Positions 93 to 63,376 of a stretch of DNA of 64,000 nt are shown here, piece after piece. Within the stretch, counting starts at the first letter, position 1. The number at the start of each line of letters is the position of its first letter. The notes under the pieces were generated by a model. The model worked only from the letters and a program-made list of their open reading frames with translations. It was not told where the DNA came from and searched no databases. Made by a program: the position numbers and the translations under genes. This DNA is from an uncultured Candidatus Saccharibacteria bacterium (GTDB taxonomy: Bacteria > Patescibacteriota > Minisyncoccia > Phycocordibacterales > Zambryskibacteraceae), in NCBI GenBank assembly GCA_964349945.1, contig CAYGIH010000001.1, positions 227,718 to 291,717 on the forward strand, in the 5' to 3' direction.

Positions 93-959
93 TTATATCC
101 CCTCTTTCTTTAATTCTTCAACTAATTTCTTTTGTTCCTTAGATAATTTTTCTGGAATGTTTACTTTTATACGAACATAAAAATCACCACGGCGATTGAC
201 CGAGTGTGGGACACCCTTACCATTCACACGGAGAATGGTGCCCGTATTTGTGCCGTTAGGAACCTTGAGTTCTATTCGTCCATCTAGTGTATCTAGAGTC
301 TTTGTAGCCCCTAATAAAGCGTCTGTAAGGCTTATAGTGGTGTCCATAATGAGGTTATAGCCCTCTTTTCTTATATGTGGGTGCTTTTGGACAAATATTC
401 TAATAAAAAGGTTGCCTGGGTTTCCACCTTCAATAGTTTCTCCGTAGCCCGGCATTTTTATCATTTGACCGTTTTCTATACCCGCAGGTATTTGAATGGT
501 GACTTCCTTCTCTTTAACTGCCTTACTGTTTATAGAAATCTTTCTGGTGATACCAAAAATTGAATCATGAAAATTAATTTCTATATCTACCTGCACATCT
601 CTGCCTCTCTTCACTCTTCTACCACCAAAGATAGATGAGAGTATGTCTTCGATGTTGCCATTATCAAATCCTCCAGCATTTCCAAAACCAGAGAAATCAA
701 AACCAAAATCATTTGGATTAAATCCTCCTTGGAATCCTCCGCCCATGTTTGGACCAGTCGAACCGAATTGATCATACTGGGCCCGTTTATTCTTATCAGA
801 TAAAACACTGTACGCCCCACTTACCTCTTTGAACTTGGCTTCATTGCCACCCTTTTTGTCTGGATGATGCTCATGAGCAAGCTTTCTAAAAGCTTTTTTT
901 ATTTCTTCTTCACTCGCATTCTTAGAGACTCCTAAAATTTTGTAGTAATCCTTTGACAT
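93..959 (-). CDS. dnaJ: DnaJ-family co-chaperone with J domain, G/F-rich region and C-terminal domains; no Cys-rich zinc finger (type II, CbpA-like)
   Basis: N-terminal 'DYYKILGV...HPDK' J-domain with HPD motif, then a Gly/Phe-rich linker. No CxxCxGxG repeats. Lies downstream of dnaK in a grpE-dnaK-dnaJ order. Confidence 0.85.
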   Translation of the reverse strand: MSKDYYKILGVSKNASEEEIKKAFRKLAHEHHPDKKGGNEAKFKEVSGAYSVLSDKNKRAQYDQFGSTGPNMGGGFQGGFNPNDFGFDFSGFGNAGGFDNGNIEDILSSIFGGRRVKRGRDVQVDIEINFHDSIFGITRKISINSKAVKEKEVTIQIPAGIENGQMIKMPGYGETIEGGNPGNLFIRIFVQKHPHIRKEGYNLIMDTTISLTDALLGATKTLDTLDGRIELKVPNGTNTGTILRVNGKGVPHSVNRRGDFYVRIKVNIPEKLSKEQKKLVEELKKEGI

Positions 960-984
960 AGTTTATAGCTTACTAGCTTTTTAG

Positions 985-2883
985 CTAATTAGCTTTTGGT
1001 TCAGAGTTGTCTCCTTCTTTGAATTCAGCGTCTTTTACCTCACCTTCTGGTTTTGGCTCTGTTTGTGCAGGTTGCTCGGCTTGAGCCTTTTGCATTGCTT
1101 CTCCTATCTTTTGCATTTCAGTTGAAAGAGCCTCTGTAGCTGATTTGATAGATTCTATTGTGCCTGAATCTTTTTCTTTCTTTAAGGAATCTATTTTTGC
1201 TTGGACACTGGATTTTATTTCTTCACTTACACTAGCTCCATTGTCTTTCAAAGCTTTCTCCGCAGTGTAGACTAGTTGTTCTGCAAGGTTCTTTGCATCC
1301 ACTAAATCTTTTTTCTTCTGGTCCTCACTCGCATTAGCTTCTGCATCTTTCTGCATTCGTTCAATGTCTGTCTTAGAAAGTCCAGAAGATGCTTCAATTC
1401 TTATAGATTGTTCTTTGCCAGTAGTTTTATCTTTGGCTTTGACACTAAGGATACCATTAGCATCCACATCAAACGACACTTCGATTTGAGGCATACCACG
1501 AGGGGCCGGAGGTATTCCATCCAATATGAAGCGTCCAAGAGATTTATTGTCTCCCGCCATCGCTCTCTCTCCTTGGACAATATGAATCTCTACAGAAGTC
1601 TGATTATCTGCGGCAGTGGAGAATGTCTGTGATTTAGTTGAAGGAATAGTTGTATTTCTCTCTATGAGTTTAGTAGCTACACCCCCCATAGTCTCTATTC
1701 CTAGTGAGAGAGGGATGACATCAAGGAGAAGTACATCCTTCACATCACCTGCAAGTATTCCTCCTTGGATGGCAGCCCCGAGTGCCACCACTTCATCTGG
1801 GTTAATAGATTTATTAGGTTCCTTGTTGAAAAATTTCTTCACTGCATCGCTTATGGCTGGCATTCTGGTTTGTCCTCCCACTAGGATTATTTCTGCAATC
1901 TCATCTATTTTGAAGGGTGAAGCTTCCATGGCTCTCTTAGTAATGGTCATGGCTCTATCTATAAACTCAGCAGTAAGTTCCTCGAGTTTTGCACGAGTCA
2001 TTTTTAATAGGAGATGTTTTGGACCACTAGCATCAGAAGTTATGAATGGGATATTAATTTCCGTTTCTATTGCAGTAGAAAGTTCGATCTTGGCTTTTTC
2101 CGCGGCTTCATCCAATCGTTGTAGAGCCAGCGCATCAGAACGTACATCTATACCAGATTCTTTTTTGTATTCCTCGGCTATCCAAGCAATAATCTTTTGA
2201 TCGATATCTTTACCACCTAGATGTGAATCTCCATCTGTAGATTTTACTTCTACTACATCATCACCAACCTCGAGGACAGATACATCAAAAGTTCCTCCAC
2301 CGAAGTCAAAGACTACTATCTTCTCATTTTTCTTTTTATCGAACCCATAAGCTAAAGCAGCTGCTGTAGGCTCATTTATAATACGCATCACTTCGAGGCC
2401 GGCAATTTGCCCAGCATCTTTGGTGGCTTTTCTTTGAGCATCATTAAAATATGCAGGGACAGTGATAACTGCCTGAGTAATTTTTTCTCCGAGTTTTGCT
2501 TCTGCATCTACCTTCAACTTCTGAAGAATCATTGCTGAAATTTCTTCTGGACGTTGGTCCTTTTCACCAAGATGAACAATAACTCCTCCATCAGTAGAAT
2601 TTTTTACCTCGAATGGCACAACCGCTTTATCTTTTTGAACCGCAGGATCAGAAAATGTATGACCGATAAATCGCTTAATACCAAAGATAGTGTTCTTTGG
2701 ATTGGTGACAGCTTGCCTTTTAGCCAAAAGACCAACCAGTCTTTCGCCGGTTTTAGAAATAGCCACTATAGAAGGAGTGGTTCGTACACCCTCTGCGTTT
2801 TCAATAATTTTTGGACTGCCAACTTCCATGACTGCGACGGCAGAATTTGTTGTTCCCAAATCTATCCCAATGATTTTTGCCAT
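985..2883 (-). CDS. dnaK: Molecular chaperone DnaK (Hsp70)
   Basis: '[14 protein letters not shown]', 'DLGGGTFD' and '[14 protein letters not shown]' Hsp70 signatures. 632 aa. Sits between grpE and dnaJ. Confidence 0.97.
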
Positions 2884-2917: not shown

Positions 2918-2945
2918 ATTATAAGGGAATTTTAGCTATTGTCAA
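2918..2945 (-). promoter_or_regulatory. sigma70-type promoter of dnaK: TTGACA-N16-TATAAT on the minus strand; no CIRCE element seen
   Basis: On the minus strand TTGACA (+2940..2945) and TATAAT (+2918..2923) are separated by 16 nt and lie about 34 nt upstream of the dnaK ATG. Confidence 0.5.
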
Positions 2946-2950
2946 TAAAT

Positions 2951-3481
2951 TTACTCCTTGTATTCCCCTACTATTACCTTAGCTGGTCTTAAAATTCTCT
3001 CCCCTAACTTATAACCATTTTGAAGTACTTCTAGTACCTTATGGTCATCACTTTTCTCATTAGTTTGTCGCATACTTATAGCCTCACACACATTTGGATT
3101 AAATACTTCGTTTATTGGATTTACTTCTTCCAAACCATTTTGTTTAAGAATCTGTAAAAGTTGGTTCGAAATTGGTTCTACTTCTTTATGACCATGAGTC
3201 AGAGCGTGGTTGAAGCTATCCAGTACAGGAATAATTTGTGAAAGAATGTCAGATTTTGCAAATTTAATGAATTCAATTTTTGCTTCCTCGTCTCTCTTTC
3301 TTAGATTCACAAAATCAGCCTGAGCTCTTTGCCATCCATCTAAATTTTCTTTGGCTTTAGACTCCGCTTCTTTAAGTTTACTTCTTAACTTCTTTATAGT
3401 GTCTCCCTGAGCTTCTTCGGATAAGACAGAATCATCAATTCCTTCCTCTGTATCTAAAATTACATCCTGTTCGTCGTTCAT
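2951..3481 (-). CDS. grpE: Nucleotide exchange factor GrpE
   Basis: 176 aa with a coiled-coil N-terminus and a GrpE-like C-terminal region ('DFVNLRKR', 'GLEEVNPI'). Immediately upstream of dnaK on the same strand. Confidence 0.85.
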   Translation of the reverse strand: MNDEQDVILDTEEGIDDSVLSEEAQGDTIKKLRSKLKEAESKAKENLDGWQRAQADFVNLRKRDEEAKIEFIKFAKSDILSQIIPVLDSFNHALTHGHKEVEPISNQLLQILKQNGLEEVNPINEVFNPNVCEAISMRQTNEKSDDHKVLEVLQNGYKLGERILRPAKVIVGEYKE

Positions 3482-7119: not shown

Positions 7120-7236
7120 TTATCCTTGTCTTTGTTTATGTCTTGCGTTAGCCTTGCAGATCACATAGACATAGCCTTTGCGCCTTACGATTTGGCATTT
7201 TGAGCATATCTTTTTGACTGAAGCTTTAACTTTCAT
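7120..7236 (-). CDS. rpmJ: 50S ribosomal protein L36 (38 aa; missed by the >=60 aa ORF track)
   Basis: Manual translation of the minus strand gives [38 protein letters not shown], the canonical L36 zinc-ribbon pattern. The ORF is 117 nt, sits between infA and rpsM as expected, and its stop lies 1 nt before the rpsM start. Confidence 0.88.
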
Positions 7237-7247
7237 AGTGAATAGCT

Positions 7248-7275
7248 ATTTTAGCTGACTTTGTAAATTTGTCAA
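7248..7275 (-). promoter_or_regulatory. Putative internal promoter (TTGACA-N16-TAAAAT) ending about 11 nt before the rpmJ ATG, giving a near-leaderless transcript
   Basis: On the minus strand TTGACA (+7270..7275) and TAAAAT (+7248..7253). The -10 is fused to an AGCTATT motif. No SD lies between the -10 and the ATG. Confidence 0.4.
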
Positions 7276-7300: not shown

Positions 7301-7516
7301 TTATAGTCGTTTTATAATTTTTGCCTTGCCTCCATATGGCTCTAACTGAAGAATAACCTTATCACCAACCAAAACACGTATTCGATGTAACCTCATTTTT
7401 CCTGACAAATATGCTAAGGTATCGACTTCTTCACCGTCAATTCTGACCTTAAACATAATATTTGGAAGGGCCTCCATCACAACCGCTGTTCTTTCTAAGT
7501 CTTTATTGTCTGACAT
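7301..7516 (-). CDS. infA: Translation initiation factor IF-1
   Basis: 71 aa S1-like OB fold ('VVMEALPNIMFKVRIDGEEV...'). Confidence 0.92.
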   Translation of the reverse strand: MSDNKDLERTAVVMEALPNIMFKVRIDGEEVDTLAYLSGKMRLHRIRVLVGDKVILQLEPYGGKAKIIKRL

Positions 7517-10046: not shown

Positions 10047-11783
10047 TTATTCTAACACTGCTTTAATTCTTCTAACACCGGCTGATACTGCTTCTTCTTT
10101 AATAATTCTAAATCTACCTAAGTCTTTTGTGTTTTTTACATGAGGGCCACCACAAAATTCTTTTGACCAAGCTGACTCAAGTTTATCTCCAATAAAATAA
10201 ATTGAAATTTGATCTGGGTATTTTTGATCAAAAAAGTGTCTCGCTCCAGTTCTCATAGCTTCTTCTTTTGGAAGGATTATGTTTTGCATAGGTAAAGCTT
10301 CTTGAATCTTGTGGTTTACTATTTCTTCAACCTTTCCTTTTTCATCATCTGTTAACTTTCTAGGGAAGGAAAAGTCAAATCTAAGCCTTTCTGCTGTGAT
10401 GTTGCTACCTTTCTGTCCTACTTCATCTCCTAATACGTCATGTAAGGCTTGATGAAGTATGTGAGTGGCTGTGTGTAGTTTCGTATTCTCCTCACTTGCA
10501 TCAGATAAACCACCTTTAAACATTCCTGCAGAAGCTGTTCTCGAGGCATTTTGGTGCTCGGCAAATTTTTTATTAAATTCTTCTACATCTATTTTTTTTC
10601 CAGTTTCTTTAGCCATCTCTATACTTAACTCAAGCGGGAACCCATAGGAGGTAAACAAAGTAAATGCATCAACACCCTTTTCAAATTCCCTTAACCCATT
10701 CTCTAGGGTTTTTTCAAATTTTTCTTCTTCTTGCTGTAGATTAGAAAATATGAATTCCTTGTTGTTATTAAGTTCAGGATAAATGTTCTTGTATATCTGA
10801 ACGACAGCACTCGCAATCTCTCGAGTAAAATTATTTATACCTAACTGTTTGCCGTATCTAACTGCTCTTCTTACAAGTCTTCTTAGAACATAGCCTTGTC
10901 CAGTATTAGATGGAGCAATTCCCTTTTCATCTCCTAAAATAAATGTAGCAGTCTTAATATGGTCAGCTATAATTCTAAAAGGTCTTTCATTTCCTTTATA
11001 TTCTTTACCAGATATTTCCTCAATTTTCTTAATAATCGGCAGGAATATATCTGTTTTATAAACATCATCCAAACCATTTAAAGCAACCAGTGTTCTTTCT
11101 AGTCCTCCTCCAAAATCTATATTTTTTTGTTTAGCTTCCTCATAAATTCCCTCTTTATTTTTTATATACTGCATAAGAACATCGTTTCCTATTTCAACCC
11201 AGTTCTTGTTTTCTGGTTCAAATCCTTTCGGTACAGCTTCACTGCCGGTCCAATAAAACATTTCTGTATCTGGTCCACACGGGCCAACCTCTCCAGCTGG
11301 TCCCCACCAGTTATCTTTTTTAGGGAGAAAAGCAATTCTTTCTTTTGGGATCCCTAAGGAAACCCAAATATCAAATGATTCAATGTCTTTAGGAGCATCA
11401 TTATCACCAGCAAAACAACTGACAGCATATTTCTCCAAGGGAATTTTTAATACTTTAGAATGAAATTCAAGAGTCATTTCTATCGCGTCCTTTTTCCAAT
11501 AGTCTCCAAGTGACCAATTACCCATCATTTCAAAAAAAGTAAGGTGTGAGTTATCCCCTACTTCATCAATATCTCCAGTTCTAATACATTTTTGAATATT
11601 TACAAGGCGTTTGCCTGCAGGGTGCTTTTCTCCAAGCAAAAATGGCACAAGTGGGTGCATTCCGGCTGTGGTAAACAATACCGAAGGGTCATTTTCTGGT
11701 ATTAAGGATGCAGAAGGCAGTATTGTATGGCCTTTTTCTTTAAAGAAATTAAGATATTTATCACGAATGTCATTAGAATTCAT
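10047..11783 (-). CDS. alaS: Alanyl-tRNA synthetase, short form (catalytic and editing domains, no C-Ala domain)
   Basis: N-terminal 'FTTAGMHPLVPFLLG...IQKCIRTGDID...FFEMMGNWSLGDY' class-II AlaRS core. 'HTATHILHQALHDVLG' editing-domain motif. 578 aa. Confidence 0.9.
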   Translation of the reverse strand: MNSNDIRDKYLNFFKEKGHTILPSASLIPENDPSVLFTTAGMHPLVPFLLGEKHPAGKRLVNIQKCIRTGDIDEVGDNSHLTFFEMMGNWSLGDYWKKDAIEMTLEFHSKVLKIPLEKYAVSCFAGDNDAPKDIESFDIWVSLGIPKERIAFLPKKDNWWGPAGEVGPCGPDTEMFYWTGSEAVPKGFEPENKNWVEIGNDVLMQYIKNKEGIYEEAKQKNIDFGGGLERTLVALNGLDDVYKTDIFLPIIKKIEEISGKEYKGNERPFRIIADHIKTATFILGDEKGIAPSNTGQGYVLRRLVRRAVRYGKQLGINNFTREIASAVVQIYKNIYPELNNNKEFIFSNLQQEEEKFEKTLENGLREFEKGVDAFTLFTSYGFPLELSIEMAKETGKKIDVEEFNKKFAEHQNASRTASAGMFKGGLSDASEENTKLHTATHILHQALHDVLGDEVGQKGSNITAERLRFDFSFPRKLTDDEKGKVEEIVNHKIQEALPMQNIILPKEEAMRTGARHFFDQKYPDQISIYFIGDKLESAWSKEFCGGPHVKNTKDLGRFRIIKEEAVSAGVRRIKAVLE

Positions 11784-12866: not shown

Positions 12867-13583
12867 TTATAAATTATTAGGAATTTCTAAAGAATCTAAA
12901 ATACCTGTTTCCTCAATCATATCCTGCAAATTTCCAGTTTCTGGATAATTCCATCCTATCATAGTTAAATTTTTACATTCTCCATAATGAATTGCTGTTG
13001 AAGAAAACTTTGTATTTGTGATTAACCAACCCTCATCCAAGACTCTTTTCTTTCCACCATAATTAAAAACTGTTCCGGCTTCTCGTATGTCATCAAAACG
13101 AGCTTTCACATAAAGTGCCACTTTTAAATCTGACTTGGTTCCAAGTTCATTATGATATTTTGCTTCACACATAATTAGTTTTTCCTTATTCCAAGCCACC
13201 ACATCTATTTCATGAGATACACAACTACCAAGGACTATTTGATCTGTGACAGTCTCATAACCCTTCGCTTCGAGTAGTCGTGCTACAAACTTTTCGAAAG
13301 GAAAACCAGATGGTCCAAGACTCATTACTATTCTTCTTATAGAGTATCTCCTCGCAACCTGTTTTTCGATTTTATGAAGTATGTCAAAAGCATATTTATA
13401 TATATCGCCAGTGCTCATATTATCCTTTAATTCACCTAAAATACGACTGACTACTTTCTCTATAGCACTGTCTGTGGCACCTGCTCTGAATAATGAGGAA
13501 CGCAACTTGTTCATATCAAACGGCTCCCTCTTGCCGTTTGCCTTTAATATAATGATTTCTCTTTCTTCGATGTTTTGATTCAT
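12867..13583 (-). CDS. ATP-cone domain fused to a restriction-endonuclease-like PD-(D/E)xK (Mrr-cat-like) domain
   Basis: N-terminal NrdR-like ATP-cone ('IILKANGKREPFDMNKLRSSLFRAG'). C-terminal 'HEIDVVAWNKEKLIMCEAKYH' D...ExK nuclease core. Confidence 0.6.
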   Translation of the reverse strand: MNQNIEEREIIILKANGKREPFDMNKLRSSLFRAGATDSAIEKVVSRILGELKDNMSTGDIYKYAFDILHKIEKQVARRYSIRRIVMSLGPSGFPFEKFVARLLEAKGYETVTDQIVLGSCVSHEIDVVAWNKEKLIMCEAKYHNELGTKSDLKVALYVKARFDDIREAGTVFNYGGKKRVLDEGWLITNTKFSSTAIHYGECKNLTMIGWNYPETGNLQDMIEETGILDSLEIPNNL

Positions 13584-16834: not shown

Positions 16835-17917
16835 CTATGCAACTGAATATTTTCCTTCTTTGTCTTTCTTGAAGAATTTGCTGTTCTGAAGATTTACCAT
16901 AATAGTATTTTCTTTCACATACCTCTCTTTGAGAACTTTTTCAATAATTTTATCCTTACTGAGTGGTCCATCTTTCTCCAAAATCTTTTTAATAACATCC
17001 TTGACTACTCCGGACATATAACCCCATTCTGCAAGAGCGTATAAACCTCGTCCCACCAAAACAAATCTTGGATCCTTTATTAATTCATTATGTGTTGTAG
17101 CTACATGTGCTTTTTTGTCAAAATATTGAGAAATGGCCTTTGCTACTTCTTTAAAGTGTATAGGTGACCCATGCTTTCTTATAACCAAGAAAGCATAATC
17201 CCTCATACCTTTGGCATTTACATTTGGGGAAGTAGTTTTACCCCATTCACCTAGAGGGTTTTTGCCAATTTTATGAGAAATAGATAACCATCTCTTTATA
17301 ACTTCTTCATTTTTATATTTCTCATTTATATCCTTAACTTCATCAAGAAAATCATTAATAAGGTCACTCTCAACGACCAATTCATCATCTGAAAGCTTTG
17401 TGTATAATTTCCTTATTGCATTCTGAATTTTCTTTGCGAGCTCTGGGTCGACGTGCCATCTATGTTTAAATTCTTCGTCTTCTTTCTCCTTTTTAAATTC
17501 ATCTCCGATTACCAATAGAAAATTTATGTGATTTTGTGTAACTTGATCCTTAGATAAATGCTTCAATAAATCTTTCTCTGCCACAATACCCCCTAAGCTT
17601 AGAATCAATTCTTTTAATTCAGTGAATGCTAGTTGAGAATCCTTATATGACTTTGACTTGCGAATAGCTGCCAATGAGTGATTTTCAATCTGACGAACTC
17701 TTTCTCTAGTAATCCCATACTTCTTTCCAATAGAATCTAGAGTCATTTTTGTTGCCTTGGTGCCGAGTCCATATCTTGATTCTATGACATCTCGACCTCG
17801 TTTAGTGAGCCCAGAAAGAAGTGACTTGGTCACTTGTTTTGGCTTGAAGCTTAATGTTATTTTTTCACTCATATGTTTATAAAGTTTATTTGTATCACTT
17901 GACGCTATATCTGTCAA
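16835..17917 (-). CDS. Sigma-70 region-4-like HTH protein with C-terminal HARE-HTH-like domain (putative RNAP-associated regulator)
   Basis: 'DVIESRYGLGTKATKMTLDSIGKKYGITRERVRQIENHSLAAIRKS' closely matches the sigma region 4.2 pattern. The C-terminal 'FVLVGRGLYALAEWGY' resembles the HARE-HTH motif of the RNAP delta subunit. Confidence 0.5.
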   Translation of the reverse strand: MTDIASSDTNKLYKHMSEKITLSFKPKQVTKSLLSGLTKRGRDVIESRYGLGTKATKMTLDSIGKKYGITRERVRQIENHSLAAIRKSKSYKDSQLAFTELKELILSLGGIVAEKDLLKHLSKDQVTQNHINFLLVIGDEFKKEKEDEEFKHRWHVDPELAKKIQNAIRKLYTKLSDDELVVESDLINDFLDEVKDINEKYKNEEVIKRWLSISHKIGKNPLGEWGKTTSPNVNAKGMRDYAFLVIRKHGSPIHFKEVAKAISQYFDKKAHVATTHNELIKDPRFVLVGRGLYALAEWGYMSGVVKDVIKKILEKDGPLSKDKIIEKVLKERYVKENTIMVNLQNSKFFKKDKEGKYSVA

Positions 17918-24925: not shown

Positions 24926-25292
24926 TAAAATATGTTTAAAATGTAAGGCTTATTTAAGAGTTATCAGATATATGGCAAACGGGCACATCTGAAGCAACCT
25001 ACATAAGCAGAATAAGTTGTTGTTCTCGGTATACGCCTTAGAACAAGAGGTGTCAATGTAGACAAAGTGCTTAAACTGTGGAGAAACTGTTTACAAGATT
25101 AAACCCTAGAATTTGACTCATAATCCGGCTTTCGGATTACATGGCGCTGTTGCCAATCAGAAACAATGTAGTAGCAAGTATTACTCCAATTGCTATTGGA
25201 TTTTTGGCTGATTCTAATAGTAATTTCATATTGTTGTTATTAATTAACGATTTCTATAACAACAATGACGATATGGACTTTAATCCATTACA

Positions 25293-28168: not shown

Positions 28169-28389
28169 AGCAACTTTTGGAATTCTGCTTGATGCTTGCG
28201 CATTACCTCCATAGAAGCTTCCATCTCTGACTTCCCCGCTTTCTTCTTGGCCTCAATTTCCTCTCCAATCATCTTAAAAAATTCTGGATTTCTCTCCATG
28301 GCTCCAAGGAGCTTCTCCTGCTGAGCCTCTGGTACTCCCTTCATTTTAGATTTTAATATTTGTCTGGTGAAAAAGCTTTTGATTCCCAT
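28165..28389 (-). CDS. Hypothetical small protein (74 aa); its 3' end overlaps the start of the oxidoreductase gene by 4 nt (ATGA)
   Basis: Charged, helical composition. The TATAATAGCTAT motif directly abuts the ATG. Confidence 0.4.
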   Translation of the reverse strand: MGIKSFFTRQILKSKMKGVPEAQQEKLLGAMERNPEFFKMIGEEIEAKKKAGKSEMEASMEVMRKHQAEFQKLL

Positions 28390-28428
28390 ATATAGCTATT
28401 ATACTTGCACTAACTCATATTTCCAAAC

Positions 28429-28452
28429 AAAAAAACAGCCGAAGCCGTTTTC
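28429..28452 (-). terminator. Intrinsic terminator on the minus strand (AACGGC-UUCG-GCUGUU followed by a U-run) after the zinc-ribbon gene
   Basis: UUCG tetraloop hairpin followed on the minus strand by TTTTTTTG. Confidence 0.55.
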
Positions 28453-28476
28453 CTGAATAAACATTATTTTATTAAA

Positions 28477-28644: not shown

Positions 28645-28698
28645 CCGAGTACTATACCATTTAGCAAACAAAAAGCAATACAATCAAGCCTAAATATG

Positions 28699-28769
28699 TG
28701 GACCTAGCGGGAATCGCACCCGCGATTCGTCCATGCCATGGACGCGTGTTACTACTATACTATAGGCCC
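28699..28769 (-). tRNA. tRNA-Ala (anticodon GGC)
   Basis: Cloverleaf with 7-bp acceptor stem carrying the G3:U70 alanine identity pair, anticodon loop AUGGCAU, and a GC-rich T-stem GCGGG/CCCGC. The T-loop UGCGAUU is slightly non-canonical. CCA is not encoded. Confidence 0.6.
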
Positions 28770-28908
28770 AGAATAGCTATTAGCTGATAGCTTTTTAGCT
28801 ATTTAGTTTTAATACTTTATCAAAATAACATTTGAAAATAAATCAATTTCCCTGTATTCTAGTAATTCAGCTAAAAAAGCTAACAACTGAAAGCTGAAAG
28901 CTGTTTTA

Positions 28909-28984
28909 GGGCCCTTAGCTTAGTTGGTAGAGCGCCTCATTTGCAATGAGGAGGTCACCGGTTCGAATCCGGTAGGGTCCACCA
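28909..28984 (+). tRNA. tRNA-Ala (anticodon UGC), CCA encoded
   Basis: GGGCCCU acceptor with G3:U70, D-arm AGCUUAGUUGGUAGAGC, anticodon loop UUUGCAA, T-arm GGUUCGAAUCC, 3' ACCA. Confidence 0.9.
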
Positions 28985-29364
28985 TGACGAGCGTAGTTGA
29001 GAAGTTGTTTGATAAAGAAAACGGGAATTTAGTTGTCCCGTTAGCTCTGTTTATATTGTTTTTTATTCTTAAAGCTTTTGCTGGCTTTTCTGAACTGACT
29101 TCAACAATAATCGCGATATTATTCAGTGCCACCATCTTTAAGGTCAGAATTCATAAAGGTGAATACAAAGTATTTCTGCTTGGTCTATTTATTGGCTCTT
29201 TTATAGAAATTGTTCTCGGCCTAGTATCAAGAAAACAATTCTGGGATGATGCGTCTCTTTTGGGTGTGCCTGCTTGGCTCCCTATTGCTTGGGCTATAGG
29301 TTTTGTAGTCATCACAAGAGTTGGAATGACTATTGAAGGTTTTAAATGGAAAAATGGGGATTAA
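28984..29364 (+). CDS. Hypothetical small membrane protein (about 126 aa from the ATG at 28984)
   Basis: Three or four hydrophobic helices. The longer track ORF begins with TTG inside the tRNA; the ATG overlaps the last tRNA base. Confidence 0.4.
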   Translation: MTSVVEKLFDKENGNLVVPLALFILFFILKAFAGFSELTSTIIAILFSATIFKVRIHKGEYKVFLLGLFIGSFIEIVLGLVSRKQFWDDASLLGVPAWLPIAWAIGFVVITRVGMTIEGFKWKNGD

Positions 29365-39411: not shown

Positions 39412-39439
39412 TCCAATATGATACCGTTATAATAGCCTT

Positions 39440-42619: not shown

Positions 42620-42628
42620 AAGTAATAA

Positions 42629-42840
42629 GCGCCCACTCGTGAGAGGGGCGCTGCAATAATAATAATTATGTGTGTCAGTGACCGAAGTCACAGAAAGAGC
42701 GAGTGGTAGTGCGGTGTTCGCTGACACCGCACTACCCGGCGACCCATCGACTATACTTCAGTCCGCGCCTAGGCGTAATGCTACTACGGCTGGCCATGAG
42801 AGGGTCACCGAAACCATCCAAGTGAGGTAATTTTCACCCC
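42629..42840. ncRNA. Candidate structured RNA: GC-rich, hairpin-dense intergenic region between convergent fmt and hpf; class unassigned
   Basis: GCGCCC...GGGCGC hairpin (42629..42651). Perfect 12-bp hairpin GTAGTGCGGTGT-ucgcug-ACACCGCACTAC (42706..42735). GC far above background; no ORF. Confidence 0.3.
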
Positions 42841-42926
42841 ACTCCTCAAGTATACACCTTTCATGGGTTTTGTCAAGCACTTCTATTGATATGTGAAAAT
42901 AGGCCTATTTTGAGCCATTTTACAGA

Positions 42927-43379: not shown

Positions 43380-43778
43380 TCATTCTGTAGTCACACCATC
43401 AAATTCTGGTCCATTGGCCTCTGCTTCGGCCTTAGTTAATCTCACCACACCATCTTTATGATGTGCTGGTGAATATATCGTGTAAAGCTTTAAGTCTTCT
43501 GTTGTAGAAGTATTTATAACATTATGCTTTGCTCCAAAAGGTACCACTATGGCTGAACCGTCACTTAGTTCGTATTCGTTTCCATCAATAATACATTTAC
43601 CGCTTCCCTTTTCTATTCTAAAAAACTGGTCATTTTCTGTATGAATTTCTTCTCCAATTTCTTCTTGGGGTTTCAAATTCATCAATACTAACTGACTATG
43701 TTTACCTGTATAGAGCACTTTTCTAAAGTTGCTATTCTCTAACGTGTCGTTTTCTATATTTGAGTGAAAGCCTTTCAT
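43380..43778 (-). CDS. Cupin-fold protein
   Basis: 'IVVPFGAKHNVINTS' cupin motif-2-like region. 132 aa. Confidence 0.5.
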   Translation of the reverse strand: MKGFHSNIENDTLENSNFRKVLYTGKHSQLVLMNLKPQEEIGEEIHTENDQFFRIEKGSGKCIIDGNEYELSDGSAIVVPFGAKHNVINTSTTEDLKLYTIYSPAHHKDGVVRLTKAEAEANGPEFDGVTTE

Positions 43779-43819
43779 ATTTTTATTATTTATTCTTATT
43801 ATTATTTATTCTTATTATA

Positions 43820-44902
43820 CTACTTTCCCTGTCCGTAATACTTCTTCAGTTGCTTCACGTGGTCAGCATAGGTATCTGAACAATGAAATCCTCCTCTTCT
43901 ATCATGAAAATAGAACAGACAAGTAGTTTTAATGGGATTAAGAGCAGCAAGGATAGCAGCCACAGAAGGGTTGGCTATGGGGGCTGGAGGCAATCCAGAA
44001 TTCAAATAAGTATTATACGGTGACTTTATATATTTATCTTTGGATAAAACAGTTGGCCACCAGATTGAAGTGCTCTTGCTACTGGCCCTTGCATATTGGA
44101 GAGTAGCGTCTATCTGTAGATTCATACCTTTAAAGATTCTGTTCCAAATAATGCCTGATATTTCTCTCATGTCTTCTGTGCCCAAAGTCTCTCTTTCTAT
44201 AAGTGACGCGATTGTTAAGGCGGTTTTGAGTGGCACAATTTTCTCTACAGATGCACCATAGTGAGAAAGTACTTCTTCGCTGAATCTTTTATTTACTAAC
44301 TCTTGCGCTTGTTCTGGGGTTGTACCAAGATTAACTAAATATGTTTCTGGGAAAAAAGAACCCTCAATATGCGGTAGCAAGGAACCACTCGGCGCTGTCA
44401 AAAAATTAGTTCTATCATCCGTATCCCAAGAAAGGGCCTTAGAGAATAAATTCGCAACTTGTTCTTTTCTTAGACCGGGTGTAATGGTGACTAGTTTGCC
44501 TCCTCCAGCGAATGCCAGATTTTGATACACGGACGTGTTTGCTAAGGCTATTGAAATCCATTTATATATATCCCCGACCGTTTCAGAAATATTAAAAACC
44601 GAGGCTTGAAGTGGAGAATCTGGACTAGTTAAATACTGATTAACTAACTCGTTCTCTGTTATAGTTTTATTTTGAGGGTCCACAGTTACTGGGAATTGAC
44701 TCTGTATGTTTGAGGCTCTTCGTTCTTGCCAATATTTAACTTGAACAATAAACACTGCGGGCAGAACCAGGATTAAACATCCAACTATGAATAATGCAAT
44801 AAATGTCTTGCGAAATTTCTTTATTGAAGCATTAAAATTATTTAATACCATGATCTTTATAATTATAATCATATTTGCTTGAATCACTAAATTTGATATC
44901 AT
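43820..44902 (-). CDS. mltG: Endolytic murein transglycosylase MltG (YceG)
   Basis: N-terminal TM helix. 'YNTYLNSGLPPAPIANPSVAAILAALNP...YFHDRRGGFHCSDTYADH' canonical MltG motifs. Confidence 0.85.
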   Translation of the reverse strand: MISNLVIQANMIIIIKIMVLNNFNASIKKFRKTFIALFIVGCLILVLPAVFIVQVKYWQERRASNIQSQFPVTVDPQNKTITENELVNQYLTSPDSPLQASVFNISETVGDIYKWISIALANTSVYQNLAFAGGGKLVTITPGLRKEQVANLFSKALSWDTDDRTNFLTAPSGSLLPHIEGSFFPETYLVNLGTTPEQAQELVNKRFSEEVLSHYGASVEKIVPLKTALTIASLIERETLGTEDMREISGIIWNRIFKGMNLQIDATLQYARASSKSTSIWWPTVLSKDKYIKSPYNTYLNSGLPPAPIANPSVAAILAALNPIKTTCLFYFHDRRGGFHCSDTYADHVKQLKKYYGQGK

Positions 44903-44910
44903 CAGAACAT

Positions 44911-44983
44911 TCCGCGTTAGCTCAGTCGGTAGAGCGCCTCCCTGTTAAGGAGGATGTCCTAGGTTCGAGCCCTAGACGCGGAG
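44911..44983 (+). tRNA. tRNA-Asn (anticodon GUU)
   Basis: Acceptor UCCGCGU/ACGCGGA, D-arm GCUCAGUCGGUAGAGC, anticodon loop CUGUUAA, T-arm CUAGGUUCGAGCCCUAG. Confidence 0.85.
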
Positions 44984-45029
44984 CATTATATATGTGGGTG
45001 GAATTCTGACTTTTTGATATACTACAAGT

Positions 45030-45575: not shown

Positions 45576-45907
45576 TAAACCAAAAGCCTCCGCATTTAGC
45601 GAAAGGCCTTGGTGTTGCAGCTCACCCCTCTTAGGAAGCGACCACTTTAATTAAATTATTATTGTCTCTAATCAGGTTCATAACTCCCGACAAAACGAGA
45701 CTTTTATCTATTGTTGGTGCTCCTCACAAGGACTGAGGTATCTTAATTGTTGACCCTATACAATATAAGTCAATGTAGTGCAACTAGTCATTTGGTGCAA
45801 AACCTGTGCACTAATTGTGGGTAAGTAGAGAAAATAGTGGAAAATTTGATTGCCTATTTCTTTTTTTTATGCTTTAATTGTTTCTCTCGGCACTAGCCGT
45901 TTTTATT

Positions 45908-62919: not shown

Positions 62920-63114
62920 TAGACAGAAAATTTAAACACCACCACACTAGGTTGTGTTTCTTATAAAATTAACTATTAAGCAAAACGGAACTTTTTTAAC
63001 AAATGCGCCTTGTTATTTCCACTTTTTGCTTCGATTTGGTCATAACTAAATCGTTCTCGAAGTTGGGCATAGTATATAGACTGCATGAATATGTGTCAAT
63101 CACCTTATCCCCAG

Positions 63115-63143
63115 TTAAAAAAGAACCATCACTTGGATGGTTC
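63115..63143 (-). terminator. Intrinsic terminator on the minus strand (GAACCAUC-loop-GAUGGUUC followed by U6) between trmD and the rpoB promoter region
   Basis: 8-bp perfect stem followed on the minus strand by TTTTTT. Confidence 0.6.
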
Positions 63144-63326
63144 AATCTGTCTCTCGTGTCTGGGCTCCATGAACCCACCTCTCTCCACACATTCAACGAT
63201 AGTGTAGAGACGACCCTTCCTTACCTTCTCAGTATCGACGTATCCGACGATAAGTGTATTGGTCTTGAGCGCCACATGGTCAATCTCTTGCCAACCACAC
63301 CGCCCACAAGGAAGCTTGCTATACAT
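63129..63326 (-). CDS. GC-rich small ORF (65 aa, CxxC-containing) with strong SD, ending in the terminator; coding status uncertain
   Basis: GAGGG lies 6 nt before the ATG. 'LPCGRCGW' motif. Locally elevated GC. Occupies the slot where rplS would normally follow trmD, but it is not L19-like. Confidence 0.3.
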   Translation of the reverse strand: MYSKLPCGRCGWQEIDHVALKTNTLIVGYVDTEKVRKGRLYTIVECVERGGFMEPRHERQIEPSK

Positions 63327-63376
63327 GGTTAATCCCTCAATAACCGGGTTTGAAGAACATCTACAACTACCCTATA

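Follow-up and report, generated by a model that had tools for sequence, protein, structure and literature searches.

The AGCTAT/TAGCT string that recurs near gene starts in the window (the 64,000-nucleotide stretch of DNA analysed here, from an uncultivated Minisyncoccia (Parcubacteria) genome of the Patescibacteria) is probably not a new promoter element. We put a probability of roughly 0.55 on its being three separate things, which would be leaderless promoters of the ordinary kind, a single conserved promoter at rpmJ, and short tandem repeats centred on AGCT. The sequence-only reading of this DNA had proposed that AGCTAT/TAGCT, fused to a -10-like hexamer, is an extended-promoter or initiator element specific to the lineage and determines where leaderless transcripts start. 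The strings that it quoted are all present where it placed them: GAATAGCTATTTTAGCTGAC at 7240-7259 before rpmJ, GAATAGCTATT plus three further TAGCT from 28771 at tRNA-Ala-GGC, AGCTAAAAAAGCTAA from 28869 at tRNA-Ala-UGC, TATAATAGCTATAT directly before the ATG of the 74-aa gene, and ATAGCTAAAAT within the dnaK promoter spacer. At priA, TTATAATAGCCTT does precede the ATG, but it reads AGCC and not AGCT. The features are listed in Table 1.

Table 1. Positions in the window of the promoters and repeat runs discussed in the text; repeat units are separated by commas.
Feature	Position	Strand	Composition
Octamer tandem repeat, dnaK-dnaJ	960..998	-	gene strand AGCTAATT, AGCTAAAA, AGCTAGTA, AGCTATAA
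dnaK promoter	2918..2945	-	TTGACA, 16-nt spacer, TATAAT; 12/12 consensus matches
rpmJ internal promoter, very short leader	7237..7275	-	-35 TTGACA 7270-7275, 16-nt spacer, -10 TAAAAT 7248-7253, AGCTATTCACT, ATG 7234-7236
74-aa gene promoter, leaderless	28390..28426	-	-35 TTGGAA 28421-28426, 17-nt spacer, -10 TATAAT 28398-28403, AGCTATAT, ATG 28387-28389
tRNA-Ala-GGC 5' flank, heptamer/octamer repeat	28770..28809	-	AACTAAAT, AGCTAAAA, AGCTATC, AGCTAAT, AGCTATTCT; ends at tRNA 5' end
tRNA-Ala-UGC promoter	28832..28860	+	TTGAAA, 17-nt spacer, TATTCT (scan)
tRNA-Ala-UGC transcribed 5' leader (putative), heptamer repeats	28869..28908	+	AGCTAAAAA, AGCTAAC, AACTGAA, AGCTGAA, AGCTGTTTTA
mreB and priA divergent leaderless promoters	39412..39439	.	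mreB TATCAT; priA TATAAT 39428-39433 then AGCCTT

The part of the earlier proposal that holds is the leaderless one. Counting as -10-like any hexamer with at least five of six matches to TATAAT, a histogram of distances to the start codon peaks at 6 nt: such a hexamer ends precisely 6 nt ahead of the start in 12 of 62 genes and 8 nt ahead of it in three more, while SD-like 4-mers (GGAG, GAGG or AGGA at -20 to -4) occur in only 4 of the 62. TATAAT is the top upstream 6-mer, present in 21 of 65 windows against 1.9 expected (p ~1e-16), and the second, GCTATA, fits TGC-TATAAT. The same 6-nt peak is seen in related Patescibacteria loci, including L003, L023, L027 and L011. The claim of leaderless mRNAs lacking an SD is thus well supported, with transcription starts predicted from the DNA: a putative sigma-70-type -10, often TGnTATAAT, would lie 6 nt (sometimes 8) 5' of the start codon across the clade, and transcription would begin at or beside the A of the ATG. 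The divergent mreB and priA promoters illustrate this arrangement, each -10 ending 6 nt from its own ATG. For the dnaK operon, whose promoter matches the consensus fully, a search for the CIRCE/HrcA operator (TTAGCACTC-N9-GAGTGCTAA) gave no match at up to three mismatches.

Leaderless promoters of Actinobacteria and Deinococcus carry the -10 hexamer about 6-7 nt 5' of the start codon. Those described here resemble them in the TATAAT-like hexamer at a fixed 6 nt from ATG, GTG or TTG, in having no SD, and in the frequent TGn; the difference is the host, an uncultivated Patescibacteria lineage. A literature search found no description of leaderless genes in Patescibacteria/Parcubacteria. An example reference for bacterial leaderless-mRNA promoters is Cortes et al. 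(2013), as cited in PMC12641261.

The AGCT-containing part of the proposed element does not appear to belong to these promoters. AGCTAT is present in 5 of the 65 upstream windows and ranks 16 among 1616 6-mers, which fails multiple-testing correction. Across the whole window neither TAGCT (122 observed, 134 ± 12 expected) nor TAGCTAT (12 observed, 9.1 ± 3.3 expected) is enriched. Intergenic DNA, which makes up 5.2% of the window, holds 20 of the 122 TAGCT, and AGCTAT occurs there 11 times against 2.6 expected; the intergenic AGCT excess is traced wholly to four loci, which account for 14 of the 23 start-proximal AGCT (-45..+3). By our own arithmetic the other nine correspond to a density of about 3.1 per kb; the figure for the window as a whole is 3.95 per kb. 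A fixed position at many promoters is not found either: of about 22 promoters that can be recognised, 2-3 have AGCTAT or AGC after the -10.

Nor is the string retained at orthologous promoters. In the 74-aa gene the relatives have TATAAT-GGCTGTAT-ATG (L023) and TATAAT-AAATGACCT-ATG (L027), so that the spacing is kept and AGCTAT is lost, having become GGCTGT or AAATGA. The priA sequence AGCCTT reads AGCCGT in L023 and GTCCTT in L027. In L003, the AGCTA of the dnaK spacer (2933-2937) is AGTCA, and this AGCTA is a chance occurrence. The TCAGCT that precedes the alaS ATG is GCTTCT in L003, and a link specific to alanine, joining the alaS start with both tRNA-Ala genes, was rejected on this basis; the use of tRNA-Ala to retrieve the relatives also biases the sample toward this gene. 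AGCTA as a form of extended -10 was also ruled out, since the favoured form is TGnTATAAT (TGC or TGA).

Among the quoted motif sites, conservation is limited to rpmJ. Its promoter, TTGACA-16-TAAAAT-N11-ATG, scores 11 of 12 consensus matches and is kept in two relatives while the intergenic surroundings diverge; it is absent from 12 other Patescibacteria loci. In the window an AGCTA pentamer flanks the -10 on either side. The promoter has two changes in L003 and reads CGCTAAAATAGCTTATTCACCT in L007, where neither AGCTA is intact. The promoter flanks spell AGCTA twice by happenstance.

With these data, an initiator role for AGCTAT/TAGCT is highly unlikely. Three observations do point toward it. 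AGC lies directly after the -10 in 3 of about 22 promoters (those of rpmJ, priA and the 74-aa gene), against an estimated 0.24 expected for a pre-specified trinucleotide; the rpmJ block GCTAAAATAGCT..ATTCAC is kept in three lineages; and at tRNA-Ala-GGC a TAGCTA unit sits at the expected -10 place, 16 nt after TTGATA. Against these, AGCTAT is neither general among leaderless promoters nor significant in the upstream census, it is not kept at the orthologous dnaK, 74-aa, priA and alaS promoters, and the -10 lies anywhere from 0 to 40 nt away from the motif and the start. As described below, the tRNA-Ala-UGC array also lies 3' of a conserved -10, and the dnaJ array is a recent insertion whose TATAAA is badly placed. 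The class that would cover the proposed initiator is that of discriminator and ‘start’ elements, which likewise lie between the -10 and the start and may be lineage-specific; AGCTAT differs from them in being neither general nor conserved. For the ‘start’ element, Kuo et al. (2025, NAR, PMC12641261) give a 3-bp motif, YRY/YRR, with the start site at its centre.

The remaining occurrences belong to tandem repeats, one of which lies between dnaK and dnaJ. TAGCT is indeed found on the + strand at 966, 974, 982 and 990 with a period of 8, as the sequence-only reading had it, but the description needs three corrections. The units are not all upstream non-coding DNA: the dnaK TAG stop (985-987) falls inside the third, and the fourth (990-994) is dnaK coding sequence; on the gene strand the first repeat unit is inside the 3' end of dnaK. 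The TATAAA before dnaJ stops 2 nt short of the ATG and is too near to it to be the -10. TRF reports 3.8 copies of period 8 over 962-997, and 2.2 copies of period 16 with 85% matches; positions 967-994 are predicted to form an 11-bp hairpin (RNA fold -12 kcal/mol, z = -3.07). Here dnaK and dnaJ are 25 nt apart. In L003 and L031, whose DnaJ proteins are 80-88% identical, the gap is 3 nt and 2 nt, respectively. Both available relatives lack the repeat, and by this comparison the run is a species-specific 22-nt insertion. The relatives' gap of 2-3 nt implies translational coupling. An identical four-unit array is found in three assemblies of the species (the window, L001 and L002), giving a constant copy number in a sample of only three, and thus no sign of copy-number instability. 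In Bacillus subtilis, the dnaK operon has an internal sigma-A promoter before dnaJ. The extra DNA here could similarly hold a promoter, with TAAGCT 7 nt from the ATG; TAAGCT has only three of six matches to TATAAT, however, and there is no -35 or TG.

The other two runs flank the divergent tRNA-Ala genes. The tRNA-Ala-UGC promoter found by the scan is conserved: TTGAAA-17-TATTGT is present in L045 and L029, and TTGAAA-17-TATTSY is common to three lineages. The array begins about 9 nt after this conserved -10, and with the promoter upstream it would sit in the transcribed 5' leader. TRF gives a period of 7 with four copies at 28876-28903, and the leader has no fold signal (z = -0.9). L045 has an array comparable to that of the window, again after the -10, while L029 has the same promoter and no array; there, 19 nt separate the -10 and the tRNA, for a leader some 12 nt long. 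At tRNA-Ala-GGC, the promoter scan found no canonical promoter. There is a probable -35, TTGATA, at 28817-28822, and the TAGCTA at the expected -10 is the first intact repeat unit; since no canonical promoter was detected, this unit may serve as the -10. The GGC run has a period of 8 at 28788-28806 (TRF) and a predicted hairpin of -11.7 kcal/mol (z = -2.0). L039 carries a five-unit array at this gene in the same register as that of the window, and lineages of the L023 type have no array, their promoter being TGGACA-16-GAAAAT-10-tRNA.

The region between the two tRNA-Ala genes spans 139 nt in the window; that of L023 has 63 nt and lacks repeats. The arrays are found in two other lineages and are missing in the closest relative. 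Several further observations were made in this region. The tRNA-Ala genes are nearly identical across lineages; L039 has a 20-nt duplicate of the tRNA-UGC 5' end; and L059, a strain contig 99.9% identical to the window, ends or diverges exactly at the tRNA-UGC 5' end, before the tRNA arrays. A recombination breakpoint inside tRNA-Ala-GGC was considered and rejected, because the sole informative base is private to L023. There are no arrays at tRNA-Asn, tRNA-Cys, tRNA-Lys, tRNA-Val or tRNA-Ala-CGC in the related loci examined.

The runs are clearly not random. One 5-mer in runs of at least three copies in two separate intergenic regions was not obtained in any of 1000 Markov-1 shuffles, and in 749 kb of Patescibacteria DNA non-coding AGCTR-N(1-5)-AGCTR pairs occur at these loci only. 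The sequences shared between runs carry less weight: the 11-mer GAATAGCTATT and the 14-mer TAGCTAAAAAGCTA were rejected as evidence of a common element, both being at chance level between AT-rich intergenic regions by our estimate (TAGCTAAAAAGCTA at up to two mismatches has 3 matches against 1.25 expected). A dispersed-repeat search found no larger repeat family that includes the runs, and Rfam at the gathering threshold returned only three tRNAs for the window, with no family matching the runs. No terminator lies 3' of the arrays, and the window proteins include no R-M methylase, transposase or obvious RNA-binding regulator. When decomposed, the heptamer arrays contain mutated units (AACTGAA, ACCTATA, CACTGGC), as expected for decaying repeats, and the presence and length of the arrays differ between related lineages.

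Starting from the established anatomy of the runs, their tandem structure and non-randomness, their position relative to conserved promoters, and their presence or absence in relatives, we consider the best reading to be that they are slippage-derived repeats in non-coding leader and spacer sequence, probably with no dedicated function. A unit of the type AGCT(A/G)WW, 7-8 nt long and in 4-5 copies, some of them degenerate, would occupy the scarce non-coding DNA of a compact genome, namely the divergent tRNA-Ala 5' leaders and the dnaK-dnaJ spacer. The repeats would have arisen by replication slippage or local duplication from seeds already in place, namely AAGCT(A/G)A where the tRNA leader begins and in the dnaK stop region. 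The reverse complement of AGCT is again AGCT, so pairing between neighbouring units is possible; this may favour slippage, and it gives the runs their hairpin potential. Because the repeats are 3' of promoters, any effect would act on RNA and not on promoter recognition; it might involve the length or structure of the leader before RNase P cleavage, or the spacing between dnaK termination and dnaJ initiation. Simple-sequence repeats of this general kind are known in promoters and 5' leaders, as in the 7-bp repeats upstream of hmw1A and hmw2A in Haemophilus influenzae. The likeness lies in head-to-tail units of 7-8 nt between promoter and gene, with a copy number that differs between lineages; the runs described here differ in that copy number does not vary among the three assemblies, that the units have diverged, and that the downstream genes are tRNAs and a chaperone rather than surface proteins.

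The features that follow sit uneasily with slippage, speak for a functional cis-element, or both. In such an element AGCU(A/G) repeats would act in RNA or single-stranded DNA. In one version an oligomeric protein with sequence specificity would bind several short cores, set apart by variable spacers of 2-4 nt, in the pre-tRNA-Ala leaders and the RNA between dnaK and dnaJ; in another, hairpins would adjust processing, stability or translation downstream. Conservation is stronger in the AGCT cores than in the spacers, which vary in sequence and length: between the GGC arrays of the window and L039 there are about 2/20 core and 6/16 spacer differences, a borderline comparison since the alignment register favours cores. 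Five GGC units in the same register are found in the window and in the more distant L039 (70% identity in the flavodoxin-like protein) and none in the closer L023 (85%), which suggests long persistence or exchange and not fast neutral turnover. In every array the A-rich AGCTR strand is the sense strand of the downstream gene, a consistent orientation; arrays stand beside tRNA-Ala genes in three lineages; the 7-9-nt period mismatches the DNA helical repeat and would suit single-strand binding over duplex binding; and the dnaJ run, identical in all three assemblies, has its predicted hairpin straight after the dnaK stop. We nevertheless regard such an element as rather unlikely. The closest relatives lack arrays at the orthologous positions; the UGC promoter is common to L029 and L045, of which only L045 has the array; several cores are mutated; the UGC leader shows no fold signal; other tRNAs in related loci (those for Asn, Cys, Lys and Val, and tRNA-Ala-CGC) have no such arrays; and neither an Rfam match nor a candidate binding protein among the window proteins was found. 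A known parallel is provided by the TRAP and HutP sites, where (G/U)AG triplets recur in leader RNA, separated by spacers that are short and variable. The pattern here is comparable, with 4-5 copies of a short core set apart by variable spacers of 2-4 nt in a putatively transcribed leader; transcription of the GGC and dnaJ runs is predicted, and some cores are mutated. The core is longer, however, at 4-5 nt (AGCU(A/G)), the downstream genes are tRNAs, and there is neither a terminator or antiterminator at the arrays nor a cognate protein in the window. The most elaborate form of this idea, which we consider very unlikely, is that in a subset of Minisyncoccia the (AGCURWW)n arrays serve as a conserved RNA element, a multi-site platform in the pre-tRNA-Ala leader, and in this species also in the dnaK-dnaJ spacer, for a putative single-strand-binding protein or RNase controlling tRNA-Ala maturation or dnaJ output. 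If that were true, the five-unit arrays shared by the window and L039 would reflect purifying selection.

It is highly unlikely that the runs are small mobile or recombination-derived palindromes of the REP type, or integration/excision scars at a tRNA hotspot, with copying from locus to locus. In favour of this, both the dnaJ run and the GGC run are extragenic imperfect palindromes of 28-30 nt that contain TAGCTAAAAAGCTA; the tRNA-Ala intergenic region is structurally unstable, given the L039 duplicate and the L059 divergence noted above; and the near-identical tRNA genes could act as homology arms. On the other hand, the 64 kb of the window and some 10 kb more from this genome contain only three such loci, the UGC array consists simply of direct repeats with no hairpin signal, the shared 14-mer does not by our estimate reach significance alone, given the base composition, the tRNA sequences have no recombination signature, and the window contains no transposase or RAYT-like gene. 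REP/BIME elements are extragenic palindromes with many dispersed copies and a RAYT transposase, and intercistronic stabiliser hairpins are a related comparison. What the dnaJ run would share with these is a short imperfect palindrome right after a stop inside an operon, with a stable predicted hairpin; the runs differ from REP/BIME in being a tandem 4-bp palindrome, not dispersed in many copies, with no RAYT in the window.

The main value of the analysis is corrective, in that an apparent new promoter element resolves into standard leaderless architecture and short tandem repeats. The AGCT-core heptamer arrays in pre-tRNA-Ala leaders occur in three lineages and, if functional, would be a rare case in which tRNA maturation is regulated in cis, in organisms whose regulatory repertoires are minimal. 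The sharply phased TATAAT-N6-start arrangement appears to be general in the Parcubacteria/Minisyncoccia loci examined, and such a leaderless organisation bears on the calling of gene starts in CPR genomes.

SecY-based retrieval places the window in Patescibacteria, class Minisyncoccia (Parcubacteria/Paceibacterota). Among the fetched loci of related Patescibacteria (numbered L), the closest is L003, a "Minisyncoccia bacterium" MAG (75% SecY identity), followed by Parcubacteria C7867-005 (L007, 46%). Proteins identical to DnaJ and Ddl occur on metagenome contigs of up to 381 kb from Logan, ENA and NCBI. GC content is 37%, and the minus strand carries most genes. Genes were named from Pfam annotation, and ARAGORN and Rfam identified three tRNAs. 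Besides the features tabulated, Pfam identified leuS, ychF, uvrABC, ddl, mreB, priA, rpoD, dnaG and rpoBC. Four non-coding gaps of 300–460 nt, which is long by the standards of this genome, gave zero Rfam matches and zero Pfam-positive ORFs.

Coordinates of features in the window
Feature	Position	Strand	Basis	Remarks
dnaJ	93-959		Pfam	288 aa; J and C-terminal domains, no zinc-finger domain; reduced/unusual
dnaK	985-2883		Pfam	
grpE	2951-3481		Pfam	
rpmJ	7120-7236		Pfam	alpha operon
infA	7301-7516		Pfam	alpha operon
alaS	10047-11783		Pfam	AlaRS of 578 aa; reduced/unusual
ATP-cone + Mrr_cat protein	12867-13583			reduced/unusual
Sigma70_r4 + HARE-HTH protein	16835-17917			reduced/unusual
Long gap	24926-25292			
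Intrinsic terminator	28404-28470			canonical; CGGCTTCGGCTG then T7, after DUF5679 gene; conserved in L023
tRNA-Ala-GGC	28698-28769	-	ARAGORN, Rfam	
tRNA-Ala-UGC	28909-28984	+	ARAGORN, Rfam	
126-aa ORF	28982-29364	+		ATG at 28984
mreB/priA spacer	39412-39439			28 bp
Long gap	42620-42926			
Cupin gene	43380-43778			
16-nt tandem repeat	43783-43818			perfect, TTATTATTTATTCTTA, 2.2 copies; spacer upstream of cupin gene, downstream of TAGTATAAT
tRNA-Asn	44911-44984	+	ARAGORN, Rfam	
Long gap	45576-45877			
Long gap	62920-63376			upstream of rpoB

The sequence-only reading described TATAAT or TAAAAT fused to AGCTAT(T), with tandem TAGCT units, beside several gene starts. This observation was partly confirmed. 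All the strings that it quoted are found in the window; taken as a whole, the window shows no enrichment of TAGCT or TAGCTAT, but both are clustered in intergenic DNA (5.2% of the window), an excess that stems from four loci only. At other loci, AGCT around starts (−45 to +3) is at background density by our own arithmetic. The tandem runs are not due to chance; runs of at least three copies of one 5-mer in two different intergenic regions appeared in 0 of 1000 Markov-1 shuffles. Within the 749 kb of Patescibacteria DNA fetched, non-coding AGCTR pairs were confined to dnaJ in this species, rpmJ in the window and L003, and the tRNA-Ala loci of the window, L039 and L045; none accompanies tRNA-Asn, -Cys, -Lys, -Val or -Ala-CGC. 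CTCAC and CCCAC also stood out in intergenic k-mer statistics.

At the dnaK-dnaJ junction TAGCT starts at 966, 974, 982 and 990, so the four units of period 8 reported upstream of dnaJ are present, but they are not all in the spacer. The gene strand reads ...CCA AAA GCT AAT TAG CTAAAAAGCTAGTAAGCTATAAACT ATG; therefore the first unit belongs to the dnaK coding region, the array contains the stop codon, and only 25 nt are truly intergenic. Where the window has these 25 nt, L003 has TCA (...CCAAAAACTGAATAA-TCA-ATG) and L031, whose DnaJ is 88% identical, has TA (...CCAAAAACTGAATAA-TA-ATG), and on this comparison the run is a species-specific insertion. It is identical in three assemblies of this species. 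TRF found 3.8 copies at period 8 and 2.2 copies at period 16 (85% matches), a pattern consistent with successive duplications. The self-complementarity of AGCT makes the run a 28-nt imperfect palindrome as well, and its RNA is predicted to form an 11-bp hairpin (967–994, −12 kcal/mol, z = −3.07). The lineage employs ordinary terminators; the hairpin after dnaK differs in being U-less.

A spacer of 139 nt separates the divergent tRNA-Ala genes. In L023/L024, where Ddl is 80% and neighbouring proteins 85–97% identical to those of the window, the spacer between this pair measures 63 nt and the repeats are absent. The tRNA-Ala-UGC promoter is common to three lineages, being TTGAAA-17-TATTCT in the window and TTGAAA-17-TATTGT in L045 and L029. 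In L029, 19 nt (ATTCAAGCAGAGTTTCTTT) lead from the −10 to the tRNA, with a leader of about 12 nt; in the window (AGCTAAAAA/AGCTAAC/AACTGAA/AGCTGAA/AGCTGTTTTA) and L045 (AGCTGAT/AGCTGAA/AGCTAAT...), the −10 is followed by an insertion of four to five heptamer units. Since they follow this conserved −10, the repeats lie in the transcribed 5′ leader removed by RNase P, outside the promoter, given the transcription start that we infer. The encoded CCA end of this tRNA overlaps the ATG of the 126-aa ORF, which has no Pfam match; L023 (11250–11692) shares this arrangement except that 1 nt separates the two, and in the L025 lineage, which lacks the tRNA, the ORF is preceded at 9 nt by a TGATATAAT of its own. 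The ORF could be expressed from a leaderless mRNA made by tRNA 3′ processing.

A metagenome scan for tRNA-Ala-GGC, queried with the first 20 nt of the gene, returned 26 loci, most of which have a TGGACA-16-(G/C)AAAAT-~10-tRNA promoter or a different conserved leader. L039, which is farther from the window than L023, L027 and L029, has an array directly 5′ of the gene (AGCTAAA/AGCTAAC/ACCTATA/AGCTAGA/AGCTAGTTCT) in the same register as that of the window (AACTAAAT/AGCTAAAA/AGCTATC/AGCTAAT/AGCTATTCT). No canonical promoter was detected at tRNA-Ala-GGC in the window. The likely counterpart of the L023-type promoter, by alignment, is TTGATA-16-TAGCTA, and for this reason the first intact unit may also act as a weak −10. 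In L023-type genes (L023 11715–11755) the −10 is about 10 nt before the tRNA, and at the tRNA-Asn locus (44885–44984) TTGCTT-16-TATCAT ends 8 nt before the mature 5′ end; tRNA primary transcripts of the clade may have almost no 5′ leader. The tRNA-Ala spacer of L039 (1915–2160, 246 nt) holds a second copy of 20 nt from the tRNA-Ala-UGC 5′ end (1968–1987), with AGCT repeats of its own in front; it looks as though the original 5′ end had been displaced by an insertion.

The motif had been interpreted as part of leaderless promoters and as a new promoter or initiator element; the former is supported and the latter is not. In a listing of all upstream regions, TATAAT-like hexamers lie a few nucleotides from many start codons and SD sequences are nearly absent. 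Of 62 genes, 12 have a hexamer with T1, A2, T6 and at least 5/6 matches that ends exactly 6 nt ahead of the start, 3 have one that ends 8 nt ahead, and 4 are preceded by an SD-like 4-mer. When 6-mers were counted in 65 upstream windows of 50 nt, TATAAT occurred in 21 against 1.9 expected, with GCTATA second, as in TGC-TATAAT. The 6-nt peak recurs in L003, L023, L031, L027, L029, L011, L016 and others, and is therefore a property of the clade. We found no paper on leaderless architecture in Parcubacteria in the literature searched. In the divergent mreB/priA spacer each −10-like hexamer is exactly 6 nt from its own ATG, so that two overlapping leaderless promoters stand back to back; L023 shares this arrangement.

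AGCTAT itself was in 5 of the 65 upstream windows against 0.84 expected (rank 16 of 1616), which is non-significant after correction. At orthologous promoters, relatives preserve the −10 and its spacing, but the motif is not maintained: the dnaK spacer has AGCTA in the window and AGTCA in L003; the 74-aa gene has TATAAT-AGCTATAT-ATG, against GGCTGTAT in L023 and AAATGACCT in L027; priA has AGCCTT, against AGCCGT and GTCCTT in the same two loci; and alaS has TATATT-TCAGCT-ATG, against TATATT-GCTTCT-ATG in L003. The only conserved site is at rpmJ, where TTGACA-AATTTACAAAGTCAGC-TAAAAT-AGCTATTCACT-ATG recurs with two changes in L003; L007 has TTGACA...CCGC-TAAAAT-AGCTTATTCACCT-ATG, with both AGCTA pentamers broken, and the promoter is absent from 12 other Patescibacteria. 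The rpmJ site is a genuine internal promoter with a predicted leader of a few nucleotides. Judged from these alignments, AGCTAT is not a conserved promoter component, and a role as promoter or initiator element is most unlikely; for an initiator, the closest described concept is the 3-bp "start" element (Kuo et al., 2025, PMC12641261).

We favour an origin in which the repeats would arise by slippage or duplication seeded by pre-existing AAGCT(A/G)A, and their hairpin potential would be a by-product of the AGCT palindrome. This is because the structure is tandem, the units are degenerate, they are gained and lost between lineages sharing one promoter, and they lie in the only sequence that a 95%-coding genome can spare. 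We retain, as possible though doubtful, the view that the arrays are a functional RNA element, because AGCT cores are better preserved than spacers, five-unit arrays are common to the window and L039, orientation on the sense strand is uniform, and the array does not change between assemblies. An origin as REP-like elements or recombination scars seems very unlikely, although the clear instability of the tRNA-Ala locus speaks for it, as seen in the duplicated tRNA fragment of L039 and in L059, a near-identical strain contig that diverges exactly at the tRNA-Ala-UGC 5′ end. L059 (4700–5321, against window 28904) was assembled from a different sample, matches the window at 99.9% identity over 4.7 kb and continues into GC-richer DNA with a different gene, reflecting either structural variation between strains or an assembly chimera. 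Slippage or duplication remains our preferred origin. As short tandem repeats within leader or spacer sequence, the repeats are of a known kind, and the leaderless promoters here also belong to a known kind.
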